A stretch of DNA of 64,000 nucleotides, from the NCBI GenBank assembly GCA_964388715.1, contig CAYMBN010000001.1:200962-264961 (forward strand), in the 5' to 3' direction. Of the stretch, positions 1 to 62,007 are shown one piece after another; position 1 is the first letter of the stretch, and the number at the start of each line of letters is the position of its first letter. A model generated the notes under the pieces. The model saw only the letters and a list, made by a program, of their open reading frames with translations, searched no databases and had not been told where the DNA came from. The stretch comes from an uncultured Methanosarcinales archaeon (GTDB taxonomy: Archaea > Nanobdellota > Nanobdellia > Woesearchaeales > CAYMBN01). The translations under genes and the position numbers were made by a program.

Positions 1-1041
1 GTATTCTTTTGGTGGTTTTCCAGGAATGTGTTTGTATCTTATTTCTAATGTTTGTATTGGTCTAACTTCTTTTGCTGTGAATAAATCCAAAGGTGAACCT
101 GGGATGAATGCTCTTTGTGTTGCTTGATTAACATCTGCTGTTGTGTCTTGATATTGAGGATATCTTCTGCTTAATACAGGTTCAGGGAAGACCCTAAGAG
201 TTTCTATAGGACCTAAAATTCGTTGTTGAAGGTTTTGTAGTCGCATACGTCTTATTTGTTTTGTAGTTAAACCATAAGGAATAAGGAACCCCCAAAAAAG
301 ATTTGTTTTTTTAGGGTGTTGGTAAGTGATTAAAACAGAACTAAGACCATCTTTATTATATAGAGGAGAATCCTTTGCATCAAGATAATTTCTAAGGAAA
401 ATTACTTGTCCACTTGGGAGTTTAACAAAAGGTTTTTCATCTGGGTCAACATCAGTGCGTATGTTAACTTCTTCATTAAGATAAAGATTAACAACAGAAT
501 TAATTCCTCTTACATAAACAGAGGTGTTATAGAGGATTAAATCGTCTATGGTTAATGTTAATGTTTTTGATTCACCAATAAATACGCCTGTTAAATTATT
601 ACCTTCTTGGATAATTCTTAATTTGTATTTTTTGTTTGGGTCATAGCTTTCAAAACGTTTTCTACGTAGAACTCCGTTTCTACAAAAAGCTTTGAAATAT
701 TTTCCCCTTTTCTCGAGGTAAACTTCAACATCTTGGCCAACTTTAAGACGGACAGAACGATTATGTCTTCCTCTTTCTACTGCTTGTTGATATTTAGGAT
801 CACGTAATTGTTCGATTTGTTTGTTTGTAAGATCATGTATGTTTTTTACAATTGCACAGTTTTTTTCAATTTTTGTAATGATAGCTGTTAGAGTTTTTTG
901 TCTTTCTCCAAGTGGTTTTTTTTGGCTAATCACCCTTACAAAAGTACCTTTTCCGTCGAGAATATTACCAGTAGCTTCTCTACCATAATTTCTACGAATT
1001 CTAACGTTACATTGTTGTCCTAATTGATATTGTTGCTGCAT
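1..1041 (-). CDS. Hypothetical protein, runs off the left edge (MQQQYQLGQQCNVRIRR...)
   Basis: Manually translated open frame from ATG at 1041 to window start; TATA-like AT box about 25-30 nt upstream; absent from ORF track because it is truncated. Confidence 0.7.
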   Translation of the reverse strand, partial: MQQQYQLGQQCNVRIRRNYGREATGNILDGKGTFVRVISQKKPLGERQKTLTAIITKIEKNCAIVKNIHDLTNKQIEQLRDPKYQQAVERGRHNRSVRLKVGQDVEVYLEKRGKYFKAFCRNGVLRRKRFESYDPNKKYKLRIIQEGNNLTGVFIGESKTLTLTIDDLILYNTSVYVRGINSVVNLYLNEEVNIRTDVDPDEKPFVKLPSGQVIFLRNYLDAKDSPLYNKDGLSSVLITYQHPKKTNLFWGFLIPYGLTTKQIRRMRLQNLQQRILGPIETLRVFPEPVLSRRYPQYQDTTADVNQATQRAFIPGSPLDLFTAKEVRPIQTLEIRYKHIPGKPPKEY

Positions 1042-1146
1042 AATTAGCTGTAGTTTTGATGTATTATATAAAATTTTTCATCAACTCTTTTTCTCGACGG
1101 TAAAATAACCGAAAAGTATATAAACTACATAGTGCCTAATAGAGTT

Positions 1147-1629
1147 ATGGCGTTTGTTAGAATCAAAAAGATACAAGGAAAAGAGTATGCATATAAGGTA
1201 TGGAATGTTTGGAGAAAGAGAAAACAGTCTTCTCGACAAAAACAGACAAAATACCTTGGGAAGCTCTATAAACCCAAAATTATAGGGAATCAGACGTTTC
1301 AGGAGTATGTTAAAGATGTTGAAGAGTATTTTGAGACTCACTTTTTCAAGGAAATTATTTATGATATGATAAAGGCTGAATTGAAGAATTTAGACGTTCC
1401 AGAGGCTGTAACCATAGATTTCCAAAGACACAAAGTGCACATTAAGGAGAGGAATGTGGTGTTGAAGATGAATGAAGGCTTCTTTTGTACTCTCACTTTT
1501 AGAGAATTGATTAATTTTAAGGGTTCTGGAATTGATAGACAAGTTGGTGAACAACTTGCAAAGAAACTTTTGGAAGTTGGATTAAAGGTTGAACCTGAGA
1601 TTTTTGTTCAATTATTCCAGAAAATATAG
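1147..1629 (+). CDS. Hypothetical protein with transposase-like N-terminal DNA-binding segment, no catalytic domain
   Basis: MAFVRIKKIQGKEYAY...RQKQTKYLGK resembles N-termini of IS4/IS1634-type transposases; only about 160 aa, no DDE region; ATG at 1147 follows a TATA box. Confidence 0.6.
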   Translation: MAFVRIKKIQGKEYAYKVWNVWRKRKQSSRQKQTKYLGKLYKPKIIGNQTFQEYVKDVEEYFETHFFKEIIYDMIKAELKNLDVPEAVTIDFQRHKVHIKERNVVLKMNEGFFCTLTFRELINFKGSGIDRQVGEQLAKKLLEVGLKVEPEIFVQLFQKI

Positions 1630-1630
1630 T

Positions 1631-1654
1631 GTAATGCTTTAAAACACGCATTAC
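1631..1654 (+). terminator. Hairpin directly after the stop codon, T-rich tract downstream
   Basis: gtaatgc...gcattac inverted repeat. Confidence 0.35.
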
Positions 1655-2025
1655 AGCCTTTCTAGTGCAAGAATTGATGTTTTTTGTGGTTTTTTTGATA
1701 CTTTTCCTTCTAACTCTGCTCTTTTTTGTTATTTTCCTCTAGATATCACTTTAACTCTCACTTTTTACACGTAAATACCCTATAAACAATTTTTTTCAAT
1801 ACTGCAAATATATTGTAGAATATATCTATTAAAACATATATTTACAAAAAAATATTTTCTAGAATTGGATAAAACTTTTAATCAATGATTATAATCAATT
1901 TTCTTGAAAGTAACTGAAAAAGCTTAAAATATTTAGTTTGTAGTTGGGCAAAATGCCTTACTATTATGGCACAAAACCGAAAGATTTATATAACAGCTTG
2001 TGTATTAAAAAAATGGTGATTTTCA

Positions 2026-2541
2026 ATGAAACAAACAAAAATAATTTTAACTGATATTGAATCAAGTATTAATCCTTCAAGTGATGAATTAGCCAATGTT
2101 GTGATTAGTAGATTAGGCTTAATTCCGCGGAAAAAGGGTGCTACAAAGGATATGCCTAAGGTTCTTGTTGAAATGTATGAACGCAGTAAATATGCTTCTA
2201 AAGAGAAAAATCCACAGTTAGGAGTGATGACTGTAGAAGATATGGGAAGTTGTGCTGGAATCACAAGGCAAACAATGTATGATTATTTGAAACGATGGCT
2301 TGATCTGCAATTGATTAAAAAAATCAGTTTTATGAAAGATGGTGTTTTGGTTGTTGGCTATGTGTTAAATGGGAATACCTTAGAAAATGCTTTTCAAAAG
2401 ACTAAATCTGCTATTATGGGAAATCTAGACGTTACAGAGCGTTACATCAAGGAATTGCAAAAAGAGTTGAAGAATGAAAAGCTTAGGAAGATGAGTAAGA
2501 AAGAAGAAGAAGAGGAAGATGAAGCAAGCGATGAGCAGTAA
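2026..2541 (+). CDS. HTH (winged-helix-like) DNA-binding protein with C-terminal coiled coil and acidic tail
   Basis: MTVEDMGSCAGITRQTMYDYLKRWLDLQLIKK HTH pattern; GGTGA ribosome-binding site upstream. Confidence 0.75.
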   Translation: MKQTKIILTDIESSINPSSDELANVVISRLGLIPRKKGATKDMPKVLVEMYERSKYASKEKNPQLGVMTVEDMGSCAGITRQTMYDYLKRWLDLQLIKKISFMKDGVLVVGYVLNGNTLENAFQKTKSAIMGNLDVTERYIKELQKELKNEKLRKMSKKEEEEEDEASDEQ

Positions 2542-3365
2542 TTACTCGTGAGTGAACGGGATGTGGTGTATTGCTTGAATTCTGTGTTGTAAATTGTTCT
2601 GAGCATGGTTTAGGGTAAATGGAGAAAATTAAAGGGGAAATTAGACGAAAAGATTGAAATGTGTGTTCTAAAACGTTGTACTGCTTGGATTTTGGTGGCT
2701 GATTTTGGATTTAAGTTGAATTTTATGAATGAAAAAATAAGGAAAATGGGATAAAAATTCCTTGTAGGGAGAACTCAAATTTAGCTGAAATTTCCTTTAT
2801 AGAAAGATAATTGAAAATTACACAAATGCCATCCGAAAGTGATTTTTTTGAATGTTGGGAATTTGGAAGTTTTGAATTGATTTTAGATTTTTACTAAATT
2901 GTATCTATATTTTTCTTTGGGCATAAAAGCCTGTTTGGTAGACGTTTTAGCCTTTGCTGGCAAAGGGAATTTGCTAAATACGAAAAATAAGCGTGATTTA
3001 GGTATGTTTTTTTTGAAAAAGGATATTAGGGTAGAAAAAAATAAGGTGTTTTGCAGAGGGAGGATAGGAGTTTTTAGGGTTTAATGGATTTGTCGGGAAA
3101 ATGTAAGAATAGGGTTTTGGGTATTTTTTGATGGTTTCTGGAATCATGGCAGAGGAGTCGAAATCATGGTACCCTGTTCTGGGATTATTCCGAATGATAG
3201 TTTTTTATTGTTTACATGGGGAACCAAGGTTCTTGGGTATGGATTGTTGAAAAGAGGGTGATTTTTGGTGCTTTATTGGGCTTGTTGGGATAATGTCATA
3301 ATGAGTGTTTTAGCGTCTGAAAGAGGGGGTGAGAGTTTGGTTGATTTTGGGCAGAATTAGGAGTT

Positions 3366-4388
3366 TTATAGGAAACGTAGTTTTCTGTAAATGTGATCAA
3401 GTTCAGCCATAATTTCTGGTGAGAATGGAGCAGTAAGATAGGTTTGAGTGAATCCTTGGCATTGTGTGATTATTTGTTGTTTTTTTGTTTCTGGAGTTAA
3501 TTCTGGTATTAGTGCTTCTCTTTCTTGATAGATATTCTGAGCATGCTCTAAAGCTTTATTTTCAGCGTCTTGAAGATGTTTAAAGGTGTTTTCTGCTATA
3601 TGAGCTCCTTTTATTGCGTCTTGATCTGCTGCAGAATGAGGTATTTTTGTGATAAAGTAATGAATTAGCTTGTATAGAGCTCTCTCAGGCCTGCAAATCG
3701 CCTGGCAGAAAGGGTTTAAGTCCTGATTTGTGATTTTTTTGCCTTCTTCTTGTTCTCTTAGTATTTGATTATAAACAATTTCAATGAAAATAGCATCATG
3801 AGGGTTTTTTGATCTGTATACTTTAACACATTCTTTACATTTAGGGTCTTTAGAATGCCTTTTTCTGGCACTTCGGTAGTCTGTTGCAAGGTTTGATCTT
3901 AGTTCTCTTATCTCACTAATTGAATAACATCGTCCATTAGAAAGTTTTTGATCAAGATCTGAACCAAATCGCTTTGCTTTCCTTTTCTGTTGGGTTTTAA
4001 GTTCTTTTGCAATCTGCTCTAAACCCTTGAAAAACATGTATAGAGCCCTTGTAGGTCTACAAACATCATAACAAGAATAATCAATAAAATGGTCTGCTCT
4101 TCTTGAAATATCAAATTGGGTCATTGATTTTTTATAAGGGGTGAAATACTGTAAAAGAGTATTTAAAGCCTCTTTATCCTGGTTTCCCTCAATATGAAAC
4201 ATTGTTTGGTTTCCAGGAGAAAAACTAAATTGAGAAAGAAGATATGGTTCTCTTAAATTAGCAGAATTGCCATTATTAACCACTACAACGTTTGTTTCAG
4301 GGAAATTCTCCATTAACTCCTTTAATCTTGTTACTTGATCTACTGAAAAACGTTTTAATTCTTTCAAATGCACTTTTAATTCTAACAT
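3366..4388 (-). CDS. Protein with N-terminal HPr-like domain and two CxxxCRPxRALY repeats
   Basis: First about 85 aa align by eye to HPr (NGNSANLRE vs NGKTVNLKS; IEGNQDKEALNTL vs ASGADENDALNAL). Confidence 0.6.
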   Translation of the reverse strand: MLELKVHLKELKRFSVDQVTRLKELMENFPETNVVVVNNGNSANLREPYLLSQFSFSPGNQTMFHIEGNQDKEALNTLLQYFTPYKKSMTQFDISRRADHFIDYSCYDVCRPTRALYMFFKGLEQIAKELKTQQKRKAKRFGSDLDQKLSNGRCYSISEIRELRSNLATDYRSARKRHSKDPKCKECVKVYRSKNPHDAIFIEIVYNQILREQEEGKKITNQDLNPFCQAICRPERALYKLIHYFITKIPHSAADQDAIKGAHIAENTFKHLQDAENKALEHAQNIYQEREALIPELTPETKKQQIITQCQGFTQTYLTAPFSPEIMAELDHIYRKLRFL

Positions 4389-4518
4389 TCATCAAAGGTT
4401 TTAATAGGTTATATATAAAATTACCTGTTTTTCCTAACTAATTGGTAATAGATTAAGAAAGGATTTATTTGAAGTAAAATCTTTAAGCTTTGATAGAATG
4501 TTTTATTCTGTGTGTTTT

Positions 4519-5064
4519 TTAGAAATAATCCCTTAGGAATTGATTCTTAGAGCCAATTTCAGGCTGAAATAATGGGCTTTTTATTTCAATTATATTTTCT
4601 CTTGCTTGAAGTTCTTTAAACGCCTTATCAAGGCTTAAATAGGCTGTGCTGAGCTTATATTCAATGACCACAGATATGCCTTTGGTTATCAAAACGTTGA
4701 TATGTTGCTTTACAAGCTTTGTGGAAAGGTGTAGTTTTTCTGAGATTTGTTTGAATGTTAGTTTTTCTCCAGAAAGGTATAAAACAAGGAAAACCTGCTT
4801 TTCTTGAAGGTTCAGGGGCTGTATTGCTGTTTTTTCAGATTTGATGTTTTGAGAAATCTTTTCAACACTAACTTGGATATCGTCGATACGTTGTTGTAAT
4901 TTGTTCATTTTTTGGTCTATTTCGTATAAACCGTCTGTTTTTTCCTGTAATTCCCCTGTATTCTCATTAATTGACTCTCTATGGTCGTCTAGTTCGTGTT
5001 TTAGATTAGAAATTGTTTTTTTTAGTTCGTCAGTCACCTTTTTTATGTGTTTCTTACTAAACAT
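4519..5064 (-). CDS. Coiled-coil plus winged-helix protein with C-terminal PIP-like motif
   Basis: N-terminal heptads; LNLQEKQVFLVLY...LTFKQISEKLHLSTKLVKQHINVLITKGI wHTH; ends NQFLRDYF. Confidence 0.75.
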   Translation of the reverse strand: MFSKKHIKKVTDELKKTISNLKHELDDHRESINENTGELQEKTDGLYEIDQKMNKLQQRIDDIQVSVEKISQNIKSEKTAIQPLNLQEKQVFLVLYLSGEKLTFKQISEKLHLSTKLVKQHINVLITKGISVVIEYKLSTAYLSLDKAFKELQARENIIEIKSPLFQPEIGSKNQFLRDYF

Positions 5065-5133
5065 ATAGATTTACCCCCGAGAAGCTAGGGGATTAGGTTG
5101 CTTAAAAAATTTTCGATTTTTAGTTGCTACTTT

Positions 5134-5772
5134 TTAGTGTTTTTGAACTGGTTTTACGACGATAAACTTTTCTTTTCCTTGCTTTATAATTTCAAAATTT
5201 TCAGTAGTTTCAAGTTCAGTTAATAGACGATAAAATGAACTTTTTGAACATAAACCTTGTTCATCGACGAGCATTTCTTTTAATTGATAGGCTGAGATCT
5301 TCTCATATCGTTTTATCGTCGATAAAATCAATCCCTTGATATAATCTTTTGAGTTTCGACTAAACTTTTTAAGCAGTTTTTGTCTGAAATTTGAGGTTGC
5401 TTTTTCCTTTTTCTGTTCTAAAAGAGCTAATCTTTGGTTAATCTGGTCAATTTTTTCTTCTGGGATTGAAGTGAGGTCAGTTTGATGTAATTTTGCCTTT
5501 ATCTGGTTGATTTCGGTTGTTACATCTCTTAAGTGGTATTCCTGGTCCAGGATTTGTCTTATCTCTTGTTTTATGTCTGGTTGGTACTTGAGCTGGAGTG
5601 ATAGTTCTTGGATTTGAGATTGCTGCTCTAAATTTTGTTTGTGGAGGTAATCAATCCATTCTTTTATGCTTTGGTTTTCCCTTTTTAAACCACCAAAATT
5701 TTGTTTGAGAAATTGATATAATTGCATCCATCTGCTTTGTTCAAGTTCCTTATTTTTGGTAAAAAGTCCCAT
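5134..5772 (-). CDS. Coiled-coil plus C-terminal winged-helix protein
   Basis: Long heptad region; ISAYQLKEMLVDEQGLCSKSSFYRLLTELE wHTH. Confidence 0.75.
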   Translation of the reverse strand: MGLFTKNKELEQSRWMQLYQFLKQNFGGLKRENQSIKEWIDYLHKQNLEQQSQIQELSLQLKYQPDIKQEIRQILDQEYHLRDVTTEINQIKAKLHQTDLTSIPEEKIDQINQRLALLEQKKEKATSNFRQKLLKKFSRNSKDYIKGLILSTIKRYEKISAYQLKEMLVDEQGLCSKSSFYRLLTELETTENFEIIKQGKEKFIVVKPVQKH

Positions 5773-6076
5773 TTTCTAATAATAAAACACAGCAAATATA
5801 AAAATCTTTTGTTTTTTGGGATTATAATGGGAATGAAATGGGAGCATTTTGGGAATGTTTATCGACGCTGTGGTGGTTGGGACTGGGACTATGGTGGGAC
5901 AGTCTCGGGAGTACGAAAAGACTATGTATATTTTGATGAAAAAGGCTGGGGTCTACGAACAAGTTTTTGGATGGTTTTTCTAAATGGTTGAAAAAATGTG
6001 ATTGAAAAATTAATGTTAAAAATTACAGGAAAATCATGATTTTTGAAAAAATAAGGTAAAAATGACTATTTTGTTG

Positions 6077-6277
6077 TCGGTAAGATGTCCAAATAGTGTC
6101 GAAAAGTGAGGGTTTATTTGTGAGTTTTAGGGCTAGTTTTGGTAAGATTAATCAAAAGTGAGAATTTGATTTGTAACCAATTTTGATAGAAATTAAACAA
6201 ATATGAGATATGCCAAAAAGTGAGTGTTTTGAGTCGGTAAGATAGGCTAATTATAGGAAAAAGTGAGGGTTTATTTG
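6077..6277 (+). repeat. Iterated intergenic motif AAAAGTGAG (x4), three preceded by GGTAAGAT
   Basis: Copies at 6102, 6154, 6216, 6259; 19-bp AAAAGTGAGGGTTTATTTG exact at 6102 and 6259. Confidence 0.8.
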
Positions 6278-6386
6278 AGGTATTTATGGGATGTAGGGCT
6301 TGGAATGTTTGAATTTGGTGGTTTGAGGGCTTGTGAAGGTATTTTGAAGGGTAAGGTTTAAATATTTGAGGTCATTAGAGTGAAAT

Positions 6387-7028
6387 ATGAGCTTGATTAA
6401 AACAAAAAAACAGCTAGCAATGGTTTTGAGTGGCTTGGAAATCTTTGATAAGCCTAAAGTGAGACTTGAGCAGTATGCAACTGATGGAGATAGTGCTGCA
6501 ACTGTATTATGGAATGCTTTTATGCAAGGTGATATTGAGCAGAAGGAAGTGGTTGATATGGGCTGTGGTACTGGAATTCTAGGTATAGGGGCTCTATTGT
6601 TAGGTGCTAGAAAAGTACATTTTATTGATATTGATGAAGCTGCTTTGTTTAAAGTGAGGATAAACATCAAAAAAGTGGAAAGTTTGCTTGGTGTGGTGTT
6701 GAGTTCTAAAGTGGAAGTCGTTTCAAAAGATGTTGTCGACGAGGGTGTTGGAATTAAAGTTGATACTGTCGTCGAGAATCCACCGTTTGGGATTAAGAAA
6801 AAACATGCAGACCGCGATTTTGTCGTCGAGGCAATGAAAGTTGCAGATGTTGTTTATTCAATTCATATGGTAGAGAGTGAGGAATTTATTAAAAAGCTCG
6901 TCGAGAAAGAGGGTTTTTTGGTTAGTGGAGTTTTTGATTTTTCTATTCAATTAAAGCAAACAATGAGTTTTCATAAGAAAAAAATTGATAGGGTAGGAGT
7001 TGTTTGTTTGAGAATTGTTAAAAAGTAA
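6387..7028 (+). CDS. METTL5-like RNA N6-adenine methyltransferase
   Basis: LEQYAT, VVDMGCGTGILG, NPPFG motifs. Confidence 0.9.
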   Translation: MSLIKTKKQLAMVLSGLEIFDKPKVRLEQYATDGDSAATVLWNAFMQGDIEQKEVVDMGCGTGILGIGALLLGARKVHFIDIDEAALFKVRINIKKVESLLGVVLSSKVEVVSKDVVDEGVGIKVDTVVENPPFGIKKKHADRDFVVEAMKVADVVYSIHMVESEEFIKKLVEKEGFLVSGVFDFSIQLKQTMSFHKKKIDRVGVVCLRIVKK

Positions 7029-7175
7029 ATTGTTTTTTAATAGTCTCACATAGTCTCAGTCTTGATTTTTATCGACGAGAAATGATAGTCTCAGGTTGGG
7101 AATGATGATTTAACAGTAACATTTATATAGGTTTGGACGTTTCTTGTGAGTATTAATATCAAGAGGGGAATTATT

Positions 7176-7451
7176 ATGGAACTAAATGTTATCGAACAAA
7201 GTAAAGGAAAATTAATCTTTGAATTAAAAGGAGAAGATCATGGTTTTTGTAATGTGTTGAAAGATGAGTTGAACAAAGACAAACATGTTAAAGGTGCTAC
7301 TTATAATATTGAACATCCACTTGTTTCTGAACCACGATTTGTCGTGGAGACCGACGGTGCTGATCCTAAAAAAGTGTTAACAGATGCTGCTAAGAGATTA
7401 AGTAAGACTGTGGATAAGTTTAAGACTCAATATAAAAAAGAAGTAAAATGA
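7176..7451 (+). CDS. rpoL: DNA-directed RNA polymerase subunit L (Rpo11)
   Basis: GEDHGFCNVLKDEL...ATYNIEHPL. Confidence 0.93.
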   Translation: MELNVIEQSKGKLIFELKGEDHGFCNVLKDELNKDKHVKGATYNIEHPLVSEPRFVVETDGADPKKVLTDAAKRLSKTVDKFKTQYKKEVK

Positions 7452-8014
7452 TTTCTTTAGAACAAGCTGAGAAATTGATTAAACTTGCTAGACAGAGTAT
7501 TGAAAGTCATTTTTCTGGAAAAGAAGTTAGTACTGAGTTTAAGGAGGAGTTTTCTGAGAAAAGAGGAGTGTTTGTTACTCTGACTATTAACAAGGAGTTG
7601 AGAGGTTGTATTGGATATATTGAAGCTGTGGTGCCGTTGTGGCAGGCTGTGATTGATGCTGCGCGAAATGCTGGTTTTTCTGATCCTAGGTTTGGGCCGT
7701 TATCAAAAGAAGAATATGAAAAGGTGGATGTTGAGGTTTCGGTTTTGACTGTGCCTAAGCTTGTTGAAGGTGATTATTTGCAAAAGGTTAAAGTTGGAAG
7801 AGATGGTTTGATTGTTGAGAAAGGAATGAATAAAGGGTTATTGCTGCCACAAGTGCCTGTTGAGTGGAAATGGGATGTTAGGCAGTTTTTGAATCATACT
7901 TGTATGAAAGCTGGCTTAGCTCCTAGTGCTTGGGAGAGTGGGGAGTGTAAGATATATTCTTTCCAATGTCAGGTTTTTAGTGAGGAAGATGGTAAGATTG
8001 TACAGAAAATGTAA
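7448..8014 (+). CDS. AMMECR1 / AmmeMemoRadiSam protein A
   Basis: GVFVTL...LRGCIG, DPRF, GLLLPQV, CMKAG. Confidence 0.93.
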   Translation: MISLEQAEKLIKLARQSIESHFSGKEVSTEFKEEFSEKRGVFVTLTINKELRGCIGYIEAVVPLWQAVIDAARNAGFSDPRFGPLSKEEYEKVDVEVSVLTVPKLVEGDYLQKVKVGRDGLIVEKGMNKGLLLPQVPVEWKWDVRQFLNHTCMKAGLAPSAWESGECKIYSFQCQVFSEEDGKIVQKM

Positions 8015-8201
8015 ACTTTTAGAAATTTCTTAAATTTCTAAACGGTTTAAAAACTCTGTTTTTAAAACTTTTTCTTTTGGTTGTCTGAAATAGCTGTTTT
8101 ACGACGGTATAAGGGGTGTAGAGAAGGGTCCTAAAACAGGTATTTTCATAGTGCCTAATTTGTGGAGAAATGTGTTGTTTTTTGGATTAATTCTGACATT
8201 T

Positions 8202-8384
8202 TTATATAGCAGGTTCTGCTATTGGACCCTTGTAAGGTTTGTTTTTATTTGGACGGTTAAGTATTTTTAGAATGTCTTCAACTCTTTTCATGTAATATCT
8301 TTTATCAGGATTATCATAAGGATTACCAATATCAGTTGGAACTGTCTTACAGCCTTCTTTTATAATTTCATTTATTGTGGTCAT
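8202..8384 (-). CDS. Small hypothetical protein
   Basis: ATG-start 60-aa ORF with TATA-like box upstream, downstream of PEP-mobile gene. Confidence 0.4.
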   Translation of the reverse strand: MTTINEIIKEGCKTVPTDIGNPYDNPDKRYYMKRVEDILKILNRPNKNKPYKGPIAEPAI

Positions 8385-8430
8385 TTTATACTATAAAAGA
8401 AGTTATTCTTTATAAATCTTTTGTTTTTTG

Positions 8431-9783
8431 TTACTGTTTAGTGACAATGCCTTTGTCTGCGTTGACTTCAACAATATCACCATCTCTTAATGCTCTGGTG
8501 GCTATCTTTGTTCCGATGATGCATGGCTTTTTCATTTCTCTTGCTATGATTGCTGCATGACATAAGATTCCACCTTCGTTTGTTACAAATGCTGCTGCAC
8601 GTTCCATTGCAGGTACAAATTCTGGGATTGTCATTGATGCAACTAAGATGTCTCCTGGTTTTACTTTTCTTATGTCTGAGATTTCTTGGATAATTTTAAC
8701 AGTGCCTTTTGCATATCCTGCAAAAGCTGTGCTACCTTTGATTTCTTTGATACCTGTTATTGATTCATCTTTTAGGTTTTTGATTATTTCTACTGACATT
8801 ACACCATCTTGGCTTAGAAAAGATATGTTTTTTTGTTGAAGTCTTTGTTTGAATTGGTTTTGGTCAGTATATTTGTTGTTTAATAGGTTGATTATTTCAT
8901 GGAATAGCATGTTTCTTACAATTTGGTAATCCCATTCTGTTTGTTTTGATATTTCTTTTAGTAAATAAGACATGTAAAAGGATGATTTTAGGAAAAGGTT
9001 CATTCTGTGGGTTCTGAAGTAGACATATGTTTTGACTAGTTCAACATAATCAGGATCTATATTGATTTTTTTTATTATTTCTTGTGATTTTAATTTGATT
9101 TCTTGTTTTTTTTCTTTTATTGATTTTTTTGAGATTTCTTTTTTGAGTCTTGATTCTATTTGTTCTTTGGTTAAAGCTTCTCCTGACCTTCCTTGAAATA
9201 TCCAGCCCCATTTTTTTATGTGATTGTCTATAGGGGTTTTGTTAATTTGAATATCTCTTAGTTCATCAAGTTCTTGCTCTGTTTCGTCGATAAGTTCTGT
9301 TGTTGTTAGGATCTGGAAATATTCTTTTTGTAGGTCTGGGTTAGGTTCTTTCTCATTTATCATTAATCTAAGGTTTGTTTCAATAACAGGTTCAATTACA
9401 TTAGCAATTACTAAAGCTGGTGAGTAGTCTCTTGCAAGGTTTTGGATTGTTATTATTGCTTGTTTTAGTTCTTGTTTTGAGTTAAAGGTTTTGTTTTGGA
9501 GTGTTAAACAATAGTTTACTAGTTTGTTTCCTAAGAAACCTAGTTTTTTTGTTAAGTTAATGAAATATCTTGGAGTTTTTTCTTTTAATTGTTTTTTTAT
9601 GATTTCAACTCCTTGCTTGAATTCATGATCCTTATATCCTATTTCATAGCAATAATTTCTGAATGCATTTACTCCTAGTTTAAATCCAAGAATTTCTTTA
9701 CATTTTTCATCATATACTCCTAAGGAAACTAAATCTAGGAAAGTTACAATGTTTTTTCTTTCTCCTATTTTCATCCATTTCAT
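8431..9783 (-). CDS. PEP-utilising enzyme mobile (phosphohistidine swivel) domain protein with helical N-terminal region
   Basis: GDILVASMTIPEFVPAM...TNEGGILCHAAIIAREMKKPCIIG; no ATP-grasp domain evident. Confidence 0.88.
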   Translation of the reverse strand: MKWMKIGERKNIVTFLDLVSLGVYDEKCKEILGFKLGVNAFRNYCYEIGYKDHEFKQGVEIIKKQLKEKTPRYFINLTKKLGFLGNKLVNYCLTLQNKTFNSKQELKQAIITIQNLARDYSPALVIANVIEPVIETNLRLMINEKEPNPDLQKEYFQILTTTELIDETEQELDELRDIQINKTPIDNHIKKWGWIFQGRSGEALTKEQIESRLKKEISKKSIKEKKQEIKLKSQEIIKKINIDPDYVELVKTYVYFRTHRMNLFLKSSFYMSYLLKEISKQTEWDYQIVRNMLFHEIINLLNNKYTDQNQFKQRLQQKNISFLSQDGVMSVEIIKNLKDESITGIKEIKGSTAFAGYAKGTVKIIQEISDIRKVKPGDILVASMTIPEFVPAMERAAAFVTNEGGILCHAAIIAREMKKPCIIGTKIATRALRDGDIVEVNADKGIVTKQ

Positions 9784-9840
9784 TTTAATACCTGAAAACT
9801 TACTGTTTTATTTAAATTTAGCCAAGATATATTAATATTA

Positions 9841-9859
9841 GTGCCCCCTTAGGGTGCAC
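9841..9859. promoter_or_regulatory. GC-rich imperfect palindrome, probable TrmB-family operator between divergent genes
   Basis: GTGCCCCCT-T-AGGGTGCAC (8 of 9 bp symmetric) in an otherwise AT-rich spacer. Confidence 0.55.
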
Positions 9860-9900
9860 CAATAGTAAGATTTATATATTAGAATGGATTATTGTATATT

Positions 9901-10638
9901 ATGAAGTTGCTTAGAGAGATTGGATTGACTGATTCAGAAGTAAAGGTGTATCTTGCTTTGTTGGAATTAGGTAGTTCTAAAAAGGGTAGGATTGTGAAGA
10001 AGGCTGGGATTACGTCTTCTAAAGTGTATGAGGTTGTTGATAAGTTGATTGAGAAAGGTCTTGCAAGTTATGTTATCAAGAATAAGGTTAAGCATTTTAG
10101 TGCTGCGCCACCTTCTAGGATTAAAGATTACCTGATTGAGAAGGAGGATAGGTTAAAGAAGCAGGAGCAAGAGTTTGAAAATATATTGCCTGGTTTGGAA
10201 TTAAAGCAGAAGCTTGTTAAGAAAGGAACTGATGCAGAGGTTTATCGTGGTTGGAAAGGGATGCAGACTGTTTATAATGATTTGTTAACTAGTTTGAAGA
10301 AAGGAGAAGAGTATTATATTGTTGGTGCTAGCAAAGGAATGGATGAGAAAAGAGTAAAATCGTTTTTTATTAGGTTTAATCAGAGAGTTGTTAGGAAGGG
10401 ATTAAAGGTTAAGATAATATTTAATGAAAATGCTAGAGGTAATATACCTAATGTTGGGAAAACTGGCAAGGTAAGGTATCTTGATCAGACAACTCCTGCT
10501 GAGATTTTAGTGTATAAGGATAAGGTTGGGATTGTGTTGCTTGAGAAAGAACCTTTGGTTGTTTTGATAAGTGGTAAGAGTGTTGCGAATTCTTTTAGGG
10601 CGTACTTTGATGTTATGTGGGTTATGGGGAAGAAGTGA
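9901..10638 (+). CDS. TrmB-family transcriptional regulator
   Basis: LREIGLTDSEVKVYLALLELG...SKVYEVVDKLIEKGL; C-terminal effector domain ending FDVMW. Confidence 0.92.
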   Translation: MKLLREIGLTDSEVKVYLALLELGSSKKGRIVKKAGITSSKVYEVVDKLIEKGLASYVIKNKVKHFSAAPPSRIKDYLIEKEDRLKKQEQEFENILPGLELKQKLVKKGTDAEVYRGWKGMQTVYNDLLTSLKKGEEYYIVGASKGMDEKRVKSFFIRFNQRVVRKGLKVKIIFNENARGNIPNVGKTGKVRYLDQTTPAEILVYKDKVGIVLLEKEPLVVLISGKSVANSFRAYFDVMWVMGKK

Positions 10639-11478
10639 TTATTCTTTAGATTGTTCTTCAAGTACTTGACCAAGGTTTTTTCCACCTGTACAAGTTTTTA
10701 CTAATTTTTGGTATGCTTCTCTTGTATAAAGTTGGGCTTGAGATTCTGTAACATAATCAACACCTTTTTCTTTGGCAATCAATGCTAATGCAATTCCTTG
10801 TAATCCATAACTTATTTCATTCATTAAGAGTTGATGAGGTAAATAATTAGCAATTGCTAGTTCTGTGCATTCTTCACTTCCACAAACATAAACTCTTCCT
10901 GCAATCCCAATAAGACAGGGTTTATAGTAAAAAAAGTGTTTGTTATCCTCTTGATTACTAGAAACAATTATTGCTTCACCACAGTATCCACAAAGAGAAT
11001 TGCGTGTTTTTCTATCATTTATTAATTCTGTATTTAATATTTTCCTTCTTAATTTTGGGGGTACTTCATGCATATCCTTTACCAACTTTTGACTTACACC
11101 ATCTTCTTCCTTATAATTAAATCTTGAACCTAGCCAATAATCGTCTTTTACTTCTGGATAAAAATAAGTAGGACATGGAGTTACTTTGTGTTCTTGTCTA
11201 TGTAACTTTAAAGCATTATTATAATCTAGGATTGCTTTTTCAAGTTTTCCAACAATCTTTTCATCTCTTCTGTTTTGCAACCAATGAATTGTAATATGAT
11301 CTGGTAGTTTTAGTTTAGAAGCTATCCTATACCACAATCTATTATTAAAAGCTTCTTCAAGTTTTCCAATCTGTCTAGAATATTTAATAAGTCTTTGCCA
11401 TTCTGGAGTTCTTTTTAGCTCTTCAACTGGTTCTAAGATCTTTTCTAATTCTTTTTTAGGAAAGTCTTCAAATCTCAT
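10639..11478 (-). CDS. Hypothetical protein with putative Zn-binding cysteines
   Basis: 279-aa ORF with CGYC ... VCGSEEC. Confidence 0.65.
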   Translation of the reverse strand: MRFEDFPKKELEKILEPVEELKRTPEWQRLIKYSRQIGKLEEAFNNRLWYRIASKLKLPDHITIHWLQNRRDEKIVGKLEKAILDYNNALKLHRQEHKVTPCPTYFYPEVKDDYWLGSRFNYKEEDGVSQKLVKDMHEVPPKLRRKILNTELINDRKTRNSLCGYCGEAIIVSSNQEDNKHFFYYKPCLIGIAGRVYVCGSEECTELAIANYLPHQLLMNEISYGLQGIALALIAKEKGVDYVTESQAQLYTREAYQKLVKTCTGGKNLGQVLEEQSKE

Positions 11479-11516
11479 TTACATAGAATAAAAAGTTAGA
11501 GTTTATAAATGTTTTG

Positions 11517-12833
11517 TTACTGTTTAGTAATTAAACCTTTCTCAGCATCAAGTTCAATCTTTTGGTTGTCTTTGAGTATTTCTGTTGCGTTTTTGACTCC
11601 AACTAAGCATGGAATGTTAAATTCTCTGCTCACTATTGCTGCATGACTTCCAAGACCACCTCTATTTGTGATTATCCCTGCTGCTCTTCTCATTGCAGGT
11701 ACAAAGTCTGGAGTTGTTTCTGGTGCAACAAGAATGTCACCTTTGTTGACTTTGATTATGTCATCTGGGCTGATTACTATTTTTACTATCCCTATTGCTT
11801 TTCCTTTTGAAGCTATTCTTCCTTTGAGTGGCAATTCTGTTTTTGTTGGTTTTTCTAAGAATTGTTCAAGAATTTTGTCTACTTCTTTGCCTGAGATGAT
11901 GATTTCTTTGTTGTCTATTGGAATTGTTCCTGTTTTTTGTTTTCTGGATTCAATATCTGGTCTTTTGAATAATGTTGGGTTTTCTAAGCCTTGCATTATT
12001 TCATCATAACTTAACCATAAATAGTCATTTTCTTTTAGATTAAGGATCTTGTTTGCTTGTTTTAGTTTTGGTGTTATATTATGTTGCAAAAAACCAGATG
12101 TTTCTGCCATATATGTTCTTGCAAATACAACAAAACAAGCTAGTTTTACTTTGTCTTTTAGTTCTTCTGGGATCTTTATTTCTGGTTCTTGTTGTTTTGT
12201 TCTTAGATGAAAACCATTGATAAATGATTCTACAGAATATGGTTGGCCAACAAAATGATGGACTCCGCAGAATTCAAATTCTTTAACGTGTTGTTCTATT
12301 TCTTGCATTATATCATCTGGTTTTATTCCTAGTTTGTTTATTTTTTGATATAATTTCGAAGCTTGTTCATATTGTTGTACTAAAAAAGGTTTTCTTGATG
12401 GTTTTATTCCCTGGCTTATTTTTTGGAAATCATATCCTTTGTTTTTACATATAGTTTCTATTTCTTTGGTGATAATATAATCCAATATAACAAAGAAAAC
12501 CCATGCATCTGTCATTTTTGCATATAGTTTTCTGAAATTTTTTAGAGAATCTATTAGATTTAGGTTAAGGTTGATGTTTTTTCTACATTCTTGGTGAACA
12601 TCATCAGCCCATTTTTCTAGAACTTGTATTTTATTTGGGTTGATAAACTTTCTAATAATTTTAATATCATTTTTTCTTAGAAATGAGTAACCATATAATA
12701 TTATAGCTCTTCCATCTAACTTAGGAATGTCGAAAGGGTAATTGTTTTGAGACCAATTGTTCCATAGGCAGTCTGATAAAGTGGGTTGTACCCATTGACC
12801 CATGTTGACCCATTCTGATTTGTTGAATTTCAT
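11517..12833 (-). CDS. Second PEP-utilising mobile-domain protein
   Basis: GDILVAPETTPDFVPAM...TNRGGLGSHAAIVSREFNIPCLVG. Confidence 0.88.
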   Translation of the reverse strand: MKFNKSEWVNMGQWVQPTLSDCLWNNWSQNNYPFDIPKLDGRAIILYGYSFLRKNDIKIIRKFINPNKIQVLEKWADDVHQECRKNINLNLNLIDSLKNFRKLYAKMTDAWVFFVILDYIITKEIETICKNKGYDFQKISQGIKPSRKPFLVQQYEQASKLYQKINKLGIKPDDIMQEIEQHVKEFEFCGVHHFVGQPYSVESFINGFHLRTKQQEPEIKIPEELKDKVKLACFVVFARTYMAETSGFLQHNITPKLKQANKILNLKENDYLWLSYDEIMQGLENPTLFKRPDIESRKQKTGTIPIDNKEIIISGKEVDKILEQFLEKPTKTELPLKGRIASKGKAIGIVKIVISPDDIIKVNKGDILVAPETTPDFVPAMRRAAGIITNRGGLGSHAAIVSREFNIPCLVGVKNATEILKDNQKIELDAEKGLITKQ

Positions 12834-40990: not shown

Positions 40991-41120
40991 TTACCGTCGA
41001 GAATAGCCATCAAAATTTGGCTTATTTTAATATAAAATAATACGAGTTTCTTTATATAACTTTCGTTTTTAAAATGATAGTAGATGAGCTGTACCTAAAG
41101 AATTTAGGGGTTTGAGCAAA

Positions 41121-61875: not shown

Positions 61876-62007
61876 TTTTTCATCACCTTTTTTGGTTAAT
61901 ATTTTTATCTTCAAATCAAAATTTGAAGTTAGTCTATAATCAAAAGGTGGAGAGTTATTGTTTATATAGTTATTGATTTTGTCGACGAGAAAAGGTATTA
62001 CTTTATA

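Follow-up and report, generated by a model that had tools for sequence, protein, structure and literature searches.

What is a crowd of short, CpG-bearing palindromes doing at one spot of a genome that is poor in CpG? The question is raised by a 64,000-nt stretch of an uncultured archaeon of the order Woesearchaeales (assembly GCA_964388715.1, contig CAYMBN010000001.1, here C1), hereafter the window (C1:200962-264961; positions without a contig are counted from its first letter). Its first 9.3 kb carry 15 copies of the word CGWCG, lying in and around a methyltransferase gene and the genes of two small proteins with winged helices, ccHTH181 and p212. A preliminary description, made from the letters alone, had proposed a binding array for a dimeric DNA-binding protein that marks an origin or a centromere-like domain. 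We find that the feature is real, selected and conserved, and that it points to an undescribed regulator or chromosome-organising protein together with its docking sites. To our knowledge, almost nothing is known of gene regulation or chromosome handling in DPANN archaea, most of which cannot be grown alone. In our judgement the chances are about even that the array consists of putative binding sites of a locally encoded dimeric winged-helix protein, which would regulate its own locus and the gyrase genes. The candidate binder is most likely ccHTH181, p212 or both together.

A palindromic array in a CpG-poor genome

The 15 starts first reported for CGWCG are all exact (954, 1095, 4881, 5157, 5265, 5317, 5863, 6737, 6770, 6824, 6899, 7073, 7352, 8102 and 9285), and the estimate of about six more in the other 55 kb agrees with the six that we found (18262, 22786, 40063, 40995, 47556 and 61983). 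The window total of 21 compares with 3.27 +/- 1.95 in 100 dinucleotide-preserving shuffles, the largest of which held 9. The whole genome (1,300,152 bases in 31 contigs, 31% G+C, 95.75% complete) has 135 copies. Twelve of these fall in the 5-kb bin C1:205001-210000, against 0-3 in every other bin of the 269-kb contig, and the 3.2-kb core alone holds 12 against a Poisson expectation of about 0.31 (P ~1e-15). Eleven of the 15 sites are genic; the other four lie in spacers and have the same flanks. The sites, with two satellites elsewhere in the window, are as follows.

951-961, site TTCCGTCGAGA, inside the gene that runs off the window start
1092-1102, site TCTCGACGGTA, in a spacer, 15 nt upstream of the cgaaaag-TATATAAA box of the p165 gene
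4878-4888, palindrome TATCGTCGATA, inside ccHTH181, codons ATC GAC GAT
5154-5164, site TTACGACGATA, inside p212
5262-5272, site CATCGACGAGC, inside p212, codons CTC GTC GAT
5311-5327, perfect 17-bp palindrome TTTTATCGTCGATAAAA, inside p212, the sole genic cluster site in codon phase 2
5860-5870, site TATCGACGCTG, embedded in the repeat array of the p212 promoter
6734-6744, site TGTCGACGAGG, methyltransferase gene, codons GTC GAC GAG
6767-6777, site TGTCGTCGAGA, methyltransferase gene, codons GTC GTC GAG
6821-6831, site TGTCGTCGAGG, methyltransferase gene, codons GTC GTC GAG
6896-6906, site GCTCGTCGAGA, methyltransferase gene, codons CTC GTC GAG
7070-7080, site TATCGACGAGA, in the spacer upstream of rpoL, within a hexamer composite
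7352, site inside rpoL, codons ACC GAC GGT
8099-8109, site TTACGACGGTA, in the spacer between convergent genes
9282-9292, site TTTCGTCGATA, inside a PEP-utiliser-domain gene
40992-41002, minus strand, satellite site (sense TTCTCGACGGTAAAAAATG), 8 nt upstream of the gyrB start and about 50 nt downstream of a cgaaag-TTATATAAA box
61980-61990, satellite site TGTCGACGAGA, in a spacer

The background is as CpG-poor as had been supposed: genomic CpG stands at 0.27 of expectation, with TG at 1.25 and CA at 1.24, and TCGA is the most depleted NCGN word of all (0.17). The array is not merely a CpG-richer patch. Its bin is mildly rich (65 CpGs), but the next richest bins, with 59-65 CpGs, have only one or two sites each. 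The oddity is the pairing of CpGs, neighbours 3 nt apart making up 12 of 58 within 4400-8200 and 184 of 8364 elsewhere. The longer word TCGWCGA occurs eight times in 4400-8200, where 0.07 would be expected, and 32 times in the genome. TNTCGWCGANA occurs 11 times, five of them at the array locus, and five of the 11 are intergenic though only about 9% of the genome is. An assembly error as the cause of the array can be ruled out: contigs of four other public runs, from two studies, match parts of the region with no differing letter, among them 5090-5549, 5810-6004, 6588-6835, 6869-7068 and 6975-7608.

The symmetry of the flanks is borne out by counts around the core, with T at -1 in 11/15 sites and A at +1 in 11/15, and T at -3 in 12/15 and A at +3 in 10/15; the 17 bp at 5311-5327 form the perfect palindrome that had been described. 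Each half-site reads T, T, A/C, T, C, G. Because the profile is alike on both halves, the full word can be written T-M-TCG-W-CGA-K-A, often with an extra T on the left and A on the right. Summed over distant genomes, TATCGWCGAKA is found 194 times and its reversed, CpG-free control 156 times, whereas in most CpG-poor genomes the core by itself is outnumbered 5-10 times by its control. In several relatives, ~1 Mb contains no more than 2-8 TCGWCGA but 65-233 copies of the reversed control word. Literature searches with the motif letters gave only primers and unrelated texts among the matches listed, and searches on DPANN palindromic motifs, winged helices and promoters gave nothing on the array element among the matches listed.

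The 5-mer CGWCG is also the recognition sequence of Hpy99I. The sites might then be targets of a DNA methyltransferase or restriction-modification system and act locally as an epigenetic switch, a reading that suits both this identity and the depletion of CpG, TCGA most of all. It does not explain why the informative motif extends to at least 11 bp, or why CGWCG is not avoided beyond the general CpG depletion, being several-fold in excess in the window. Nor would restriction avoidance predict clustering at one locus and in gyrase leaders (see below). We give this explanation a very remote chance.

The sites are kept at a cost in codons

Codon choice was examined in crude gene models, the longest non-overlapping open reading frames (ORFs) of at least 90 aa (1118 models, 90.7% of the genome), and for each of them synonymous codons were shuffled within the gene 200 times. 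The four sites in the methyltransferase gene are, as the preliminary description had it, written in rare codons: V-D-E, V-V-E (twice) and L-V-E appear as GTC GAC GAG, GTC GTC GAG (twice) and CTC GTC GAG, in a genome where Val is written GTC in 5.2% of cases, Leu CTC in 3.6%, Asp GAC in 20.5% and Glu GAG in 15.9%. After shuffling, this gene is expected to hold 0.38 sites and none of the 200 shuffles reaches four, the largest excess of all 1118 models; the p212 gene (5134-5772) has three against 0.49. All 12 CpGs of the methyltransferase gene are confined to 176 bp (6728-6903). The test is conservative, since over the whole genome the same shuffle predicts more sites (214.6) than are observed (104). 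The density of sites thus stays in excess of both the genome background and the codon-preserving shuffle, and the earlier view that selection acts on the DNA motif rather than on the protein is upheld by this excess and by the use of rare codons.

There is a rival account without any dedicated binder, in which local codon or mutation bias, a patch escaping CpG loss, or runs of rare codons that slow translation at hydrophobic-Val/Asp-Glu/Asp triplets would produce the pattern. Codon phase lends it some colour, as 10 of the 11 genic cluster sites and 91 of the 103 genic sites of the genome stand in phase NNC GWC GNN. Three nucleotides is moreover the commonest short CpG spacing genome-wide, and the strong CpG depletion comes with an excess of TpG and CpA. 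Against it stand the four spacer sites, which have these same flanks, the survival of the excess when each gene's codon use is preserved, and 11-mer flanks that are specific to the CpG core. The comparison with relatives, given next, adds that other families show the excess at this locus too, but not at two control loci, with sites at non-homologous codons where these were compared. Taken together, these points make an account without a binder highly unlikely.

The cluster is conserved and follows the p212 gene

Conservation was followed in the 40 nearest genomes, all of them from other families of the same order and with methyltransferase identities of 51% or less; handles such as G018 denote single genomes. 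Expected numbers of TCGWCGA at their loci were computed from each genome's own total, and the P values are rough because genome sizes were rounded and the relatives are not independent. At 19 methyltransferase loci (65 kb in all, methyltransferase 42-51% identical) TCGWCGA occurs 20 times against 4.1 expected (P 1.5e-8), which makes the clustering a conserved feature; restricted to the 14 genomes where the word is scarcest, the count at these loci is 16 against 0.97. Control loci show nothing of the kind, with three against 8.66 at 29 MetRS loci and 12 against 10.46 at 29 FttA loci. The conserved gene order is ccHTH181, p212, spacer, methyltransferase, rpoL, AMMECR1 and p165. In G018, all five CGWCG of a 12.6-kb stretch lie inside 1.5 kb over ccHTH181, p212 and the methyltransferase, and in G001 three of the genome's eight TCGWCGA are found within 5 kb at this locus. 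Where orthologous methyltransferase genes were compared, between our genome and G018, the sites sit at different codons, the G018 site falling in an IDID motif where our copy has none. This indicates sites kept by selection rather than inherited.

Within the locus, the site cluster follows the p212 gene. Strong p212 orthologues (profile search, E <= 1e-26) occur in 12 of the 40 relatives, and their loci contain 17 TCGWCGA against 0.685 expected; these include G013, G016, G017 and G023, in which p212 is separated from the methyltransferase gene or the latter was not found. With p212 adjacent, methyltransferase loci have 13 against 0.43; without it, seven against 3.67. ccHTH181 is more widespread, being found once each in 34 of the 41 genomes of the order, and it stands beside p212 wherever both were seen. 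In the p212 winged helix, residues of the LCSKSSFYR stretch are invariant across eight families, which fits an unchanged DNA target.

A repeat array with an embedded palindrome lies upstream of p212 in ten genomes, our own included. The other bearers are G001, G009, G011 (core degenerate), G015, G017, G018, G023, G027 (variant repeat GAGACAAT) and G038. G013 and G016 lack the array; their p212 and ccHTH181 genes diverge from a short spacer. We also considered whether neighbouring sites are helically phased. Five of six spacings in our genome fit 10.7-10.9 bp (P 0.011, post hoc), but only 5 of 13 in relatives and 25 of 75 at control loci do, and the idea was dropped.

Two lineage-restricted winged-helix proteins are the candidate binders

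The genes at the locus are arranged divergently, with p212 and ccHTH181 running leftward and the methyltransferase, rpoL and AMMECR1 genes rightward from a 614-bp spacer (5773-6386).

1132-1629, plus strand, p165, no family match; in relatives, follows AMMECR1 within the same gene cluster, and the G013 copy has a site in its 5' end
2026-2541, plus strand, HTH171, weak Crp-like helix-turn-helix (HTH) match below the Pfam cut-off
4519-5064, minus strand, ccHTH181, N-terminal coiled coil and C-terminal winged helix, candidate binder
5134-5772, minus strand, p212, three long helices and a C-terminal winged helix, candidate binder
6387-7028, plus strand, MTS-type methyltransferase (NPPF motif), with four in-frame sites within 165 bp
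7177-7451, plus strand, RNA polymerase subunit L (Rpo11), rpoL, holding site 7352
7448-8014, plus strand, AMMECR1, last conserved member of the rightward operon
5818-5912, plus strand, hexamer array of about nine repeats in the spacer with the p212 promoter, most starts 11 bp apart
6097-6272, plus strand, four AAAGTGAG copies (three of AAAAGTGAGGGTTT type) and a 57-nt direct repeat, in the 614-bp spacer
7042-7103, composite upstream of rpoL, AGTCTC at 7042, 7052 and 7087 and GGGAAT at 7098 around TATCGACGAGA

The preliminary description had named three possible binders, the proteins encoded at 2026, 4519 and 5134. The last two, ccHTH181 and p212, remain good candidates; the first, HTH171, was singled out by no test, and is 44-59% identical in five relatives, where it lies beside or a few kb from ccHTH181. 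The p212 model has helices at residues 3-62, 67-97 and 105-156 followed by the winged helix (mean pLDDT 71.9). A fold search with it gave no match at E <= 0.001, the best being generic winged helices: a 64-residue DNA-recognition domain (entry 2mh2, 1.8e-3), then PadR, BlaI/MecI, Fur and ArsR types. For ccHTH181, NCBIfam and Pfam returned sub-threshold coiled-coil matches and sub-threshold to borderline HTH matches, and for p212, p165 and the genes at 3366-4388 and 1-1041 the same two libraries returned nothing usable. The Atlas clusters of p212 and ccHTH181 are named 'hypothetical' or 'HTH type 11 domain-containing' and come almost only from Woesearchaeota/Nanobdellota. A predicted complex of the two proteins (score 0.01, mark 0.32) speaks neither for nor against their pairing.

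The inference of a binding array for a dimeric protein draws on four things: the palindrome, its maintenance against codon preference, the conserved clustering, and the fact that the cluster travels with two winged-helix genes. To these the promoter of p212 adds its own pattern. The hexamers of 5818-5912 read GGGATT, GGGAAT, GGGAGC, GGGAAT, GGGACT (twice), GGGACA and GGGAG, and the CGACG at 5863-5867 sits in the array's gap. Only two such arrays occur in spacers of the genome, both at this locus, with one weak genic match elsewhere. In rpoL of G001, a site lies two codons upstream of the position of our 7352 site, both falling in one conserved F-[VI]-V-E-T-D-G stretch. The ordinary G+C, the core genes and their conserved order in relatives led us to reject a recently transferred island.

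Scans of the first part of the window (1-12000) for other elements gave one sub-threshold Rfam match (E <= 1) and no family at gathering score, and no tRNA; bacterial-type promoters and terminators were at shuffle level. Two further sequence elements of the region were seen. AAAGTGAG occurs 41 times in the genome, nine of them in window 900-9300 and four in the 614-bp spacer, where the three of AAAAGTGAGGGTTT type fall within the 57-nt direct repeat. In five relatives (loci L081, L082, L083, L084 and L090), the methyltransferase start is closely preceded by AAAGTGAGAGTT or AAAGTGAGTGTT. The element may be a word akin to a ribosome-binding site, part of a small RNA or another binding site.

Single sites recur in the leaders of the gyrase genes

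Away from the cluster, the most consistent placement is ahead of the two gyrase genes. CGWCG is found within -100 to 0 of gyrB in 5 of 27 relatives, besides our own genome (-8) and G001 (-61), and within -100 to +40 of gyrA in 6 of 24 relatives, besides our own genome (codon 7-8). The same windows at the MetRS and FttA controls gave 1 of 54 (Fisher P 0.014 for gyrB; 0.008 for gyrA with G021, the genome that prompted the idea, left out). All 14 proximal gyrA/gyrB sites, those of our genome and G001 included, have CGACG as their sense-strand reading (two-sided P 1.2e-4). A cgaaa-TTTATAAA-like BRE/TATA box stands 30-55 nt upstream of most of them (by eye), and the start codon follows 4 to ~100 nt downstream, three sites standing 4-7 nt before the ATG. 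Given the box distance and the usual archaeal spacing between TATA box and transcription start, the sites would lie just after the likely start of transcription. Single sites conserved ahead of gyrA and gyrB in many families speak for gene regulation, and the motif is here conserved upstream of orthologues in diverged genomes, as operators of a regulon are.

The common orientation of these sites could also mean that the element is read in RNA, with UCGACGA in the gyrA/gyrB leaders recognised by an RNA-binding protein or a small RNA and the genic copies as further targets. Both the 14/14 strand sense and the position between a TATA-like box and the start codon favour such a role. The cluster itself argues against it: over the nine sites in ccHTH181, p212, methyltransferase and rpoL genes the sense is mixed (4 CGACG and 5 CGUCG), sites occur in spacers of divergent and of convergent genes, and the flanks are symmetric as for duplex DNA. 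The Rfam scan of window 1-12000, with no family at gathering score, does not favour it either. An RNA-level element is accordingly a reading of quite low probability.

Sites at other genes of chromosome maintenance are less regular. Six of 30 ftsZ loci, our own included, have a site at -290 to -410. In our genome, the sites outside the cluster include gyrB -8, gyrA codon 7-8, topA +72, one 300 nt upstream of ftsZ, and sites in Mre11 and HerA. We listed TCGWCGA in ten CpG-poor relatives (2-12 each) and annotated the neighbours of most, four G013 sites excepted. The word lies at the 5' edge of ftsZ in G001 and 90 nt upstream of it in G010, and just after the RFC gene in G001. In G034 it is found 74 nt upstream of cdc6, in the genes of the primase small subunit and an Xer-like recombinase, and beside a deoxynucleoside kinase gene. 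The remaining copies in relatives are in unrelated genes, for surface proteins, transposases and metabolic enzymes. Spot checks of 11-mer neighbours gave gyrA, topoisomerase I, GINS, RFC and Nre.

Origin marking finds no support, and the likeness to a centromere is partial

Could the sites nonetheless belong to a chromosomal origin, as initiator recognition boxes? The spacer is long (614 bp) and rich in repeats, the genome being ~90% coding, and some satellite sites are near replication genes, which would be in keeping with this. The genome map is not. One Orc1/Cdc6 gene lies 197 kb away (C1:8.8 kb, the locus being at C1:205-210 kb) and the other on contig C12. In the one-contig genome G016, cdc6 (765 kb) and p212 (437 kb) are 328 kb apart; in four more relatives the main cdc6 is on another contig, G022 having a second cdc6-like gene 41 kb from the locus. 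The GC skew makes no turn at the locus, being positive across it and almost the entire 269-kb contig. The locus thus has neither an adjacent orc1/cdc6 gene nor a skew turn, matching to the origin recognition box (ORB) consensus not having been attempted, and its sites are mostly genic. The idea that the array marks an origin, put forward in the preliminary description, is in our view scarcely credible.

The centromere-like half of that proposal fares better. The closest recorded pattern is that of SegB of Sulfolobales. Chromatin immunoprecipitation sequencing (ChIP-seq) placed SegB on a 13-bp odd palindrome with a degenerate centre, at 46-49 sites that are 83.7% genic and lie mainly near segAB (PMC12284271). 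The likeness extends to an odd palindrome with a degenerate central base (TCTAGA-S-TCTAGA for SegB, TMTCG-W-CGAKA here), to tens of sites or fewer per genome, to a mostly genic placement (11/15 here), to the greatest density around the binder gene, and to conservation of the motif across genera (PMC12284271). The motif sequence differs, and so do the proteins. SegB is a ribbon-helix-helix protein with a ParA-type SegA, while the candidates here are coiled-coil winged-helix proteins beside which we found no ParA-type gene, and here single sites are also fixed in gyrase leaders.

Searches for the proteins of known partition systems were negative. ParB_N (PF02195) was not matched in the genome (95.75% complete) at E <= 0.001; 10 of 14 control genomes gave a match to the family in this search. 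For ParA-type ATPases, PF13614 had no match in the genome and none was seen at the locus; PF01656 gave 28.5 bits in an unrelated-looking 460-aa frame on contig C8 and 19.5 bits in a CTP synthase region. A ParABS system, with a ParB-family protein, a ParA partner and sites near the origin, is thus found in none of its parts. A SegAB pair was likewise not found at the locus, where the DNA-binding genes are of winged-helix type and no ParA-type gene occurs, the SegB sequence itself not having been searched for. Short direct repeats at helical period in the promoter of the binder operon, as in plasmid iterons, are present with an 11-bp period in ten genomes; the ribbon-helix-helix binder and the actin-like or ParA motor of those systems were not found, the operon consisting of two winged-helix genes only. 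No motor can be named at the locus, since the genes at 3366-4388 and 1-1041 have no family match.

The palindromes may on this evidence be loading or bridging sites for p212/ccHTH181 in a SegB-like centromere or organising array that compacts, tethers or positions the region, with regulation secondary or absent. Besides the SegB-like pattern, such an array would account for genic sites being densest on the presumed binder's own genes. The 11-bp-period array in the p212 promoter is unique in the genome and similar to plasmid-partition centromeres of iteron type (ParR/parC, omega), and the long coiled coils of the candidates are suited to bridging. What tells against it is the lack of a ParA-type ATPase or ParB_N domain among the matches in the genome, a locus that is not near cdc6, and strong p212 orthologues in only 12 of 40 relatives, which is patchy for a core segregation device. 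The oriented placement in gyrA/gyrB leaders has no reason under pure organisation and speaks for regulation. We rank this explanation second and think it somewhat unlikely; the centromere-like character first ascribed to the locus has the pattern of sites in its favour and lacks the expected proteins.

A model for the array, and what weighs against it

In the reading that we prefer, a local winged-helix dimer regulating its own locus and gyrase, the coiled coils would hold two subunits together, each winged helix reading one of the two TMTCG half-sites. The dozen sites in and around the protein's own genes, with the 11-bp-period GGGAAT/GGGACT array, would then give a densely occupied stretch of DNA, which could exert feedback on the two divergent operons. 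At gyrA and gyrB, the single sites ~30-55 nt past the TATA boxes would act as operators at the transcription start, and the less regular sites near ftsZ, cdc6, RFC and Mre11/HerA-NurA genes might be further targets. The identity of the binder, the occurrence of binding and its effect on transcription are what we infer here.

Several observations weigh against this model. The placement of 11 of 15 sites inside genes is out of the ordinary for operators, whereas centromere-like or nucleoid-organising sites typically lie there. The gyrA/gyrB sites occur in genomes with and without p212, so that p212 cannot be their sole reader, and the presence of ccHTH181 is uninformative on this point because the gene is so widespread. 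The fixed central base of the gyrase sites (14/14) is not expected of a symmetric homodimer and would need a heterodimer, asymmetric flanks or a role at the RNA level. G010 and G020 have ccHTH181 beside the methyltransferase gene yet no site at the locus. At topA, sites were found at 6 of 29 loci, not above controls, and three of these are one conserved LADG codon pair. Our own genome's sites outside the cluster are weakly enriched upstream of starts (18/110 against 12.8% of CpGs). The gyrase hypothesis, finally, arose from the same genomes that were used to test it, and the relatives are not independent.

Other known systems share parts of the pattern. KorB with its OB sites on IncP plasmids and omega of pSM19035 are dual proteins, both global repressors and partition proteins. 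They have about a dozen palindromic or iterated sites, some in promoters and some distant or genic, and control their own operon and others; the KorB operator also has a T-rich arm, a GC core with a degenerate centre and an A-rich arm. KorB, however, is of the ParB family and omega is a ribbon-helix-helix protein, and both are plasmid-borne with ParA partners, whereas the present array is chromosomal and archaeal, its candidate binders have another fold, and no ParB_N was found. RacA of Bacillus subtilis, which binds ram sites, likewise combines an HTH with a coiled coil and reads a GC-rich palindrome, largely genic, in an AT-rich genome. Its DNA-binding domain is N-terminal, and the ram sites are scattered through hundreds of kb near the origin; here the order of domains is reversed and the sites span 3-9 kb not near cdc6. 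Archaeal repressors of the MDR1, LrpA and Phr type bind a palindromic operator between TATA box and start codon and regulate themselves. The gyrase-leader sites look, by analogy, like such ordinary archaeal operators, but those repressors have one to few promoter operators, without a dense genic array in rare codons or 11-bp repeats.

A bolder variant would be a chromosome hub of the order's own. Paralogous p212 and ccHTH181 would form an oriented heterodimer that reads the asymmetric centre, pile up on the platform of iterons and palindromes as a motor-less centromere-like body, and, either from that body or by way of the satellite sites, directly gate gyrase, ftsZ and the replication or repair genes. 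We consider it clearly improbable; if true, it would mean that DNA topology, division and chromosome organisation are coupled by one lineage-specific system.

Whichever of these readings applies, the locus offers a concrete pairing of an 11-13-bp DNA word and a unique repeat array with two uncharacterised, lineage-restricted winged-helix proteins, and the gyrase genes, the operon of the regulators themselves and the rpoL operon would serve as its direct read-out. Should the array be an organiser, it would represent a segregation or organisation device without a ParA motor; should it be a regulator, it would provide the first cis-regulatory code for DNA-topology genes in the DPANN group. More generally, local clusters of CpG words may be a sensitive detector of protein-binding arrays in strongly CpG-depleted genomes.

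Further observations

Some features seen along the way concern motif copies elsewhere. At C1:13605-13648, two copies (TTTCGTCGAGA and TGTCGTCGAGA) lie 33 bp apart in a spacer, ~60-95 nt upstream of a putative tRNA gene (by eye). On contig C8 of G038 (L102, 5080-5240), a 53-bp unit that contains ATCGACGAGAA and a GTCGTC half-word is repeated exactly, in tandem, to give three copies; these lie in a 1-kb spacer, downstream of which come a 131-aa ORF and then a NurA-domain gene. In G018, the gene immediately before ftsZ (L101, G018:C6 5217-5786) encodes an IclR-type winged-helix protein of 190 aa and contains three of that genome's 13 TCGWCGA; its orthologue in our genome (C11:47139-47711) lies 3 kb upstream of ftsZ. 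At C3:107045-112090 there is a ~2.9-kb duplication, in which the identical flanks of three CGWCG recur 2938 bp apart and a 2.5-kb ORF is present in two copies.

Others concern the genes themselves. Gyrase frames of 828-1310 aa with a split match, probably due to inteins, were seen for gyrB in G007, G013, G020, G026 and G029 and for gyrA in G005, G008, G010 and G019, and GyrB of G001 (L174, G001:C96) matches an intein splicing domain. The topoisomerase I matches of G010, G016, G017, G018, G029 and G037 have one in-frame stop each (TAA, TAG or TGA), which could reflect a split gene, an error or recoding. In the window, 8431-9783 and 11517-12833 are paralogous genes of 438-450 aa in which only a C-terminal PEP-utilising mobile domain is recognisable, and they flank a TrmB-family regulator gene at 9892-10638.

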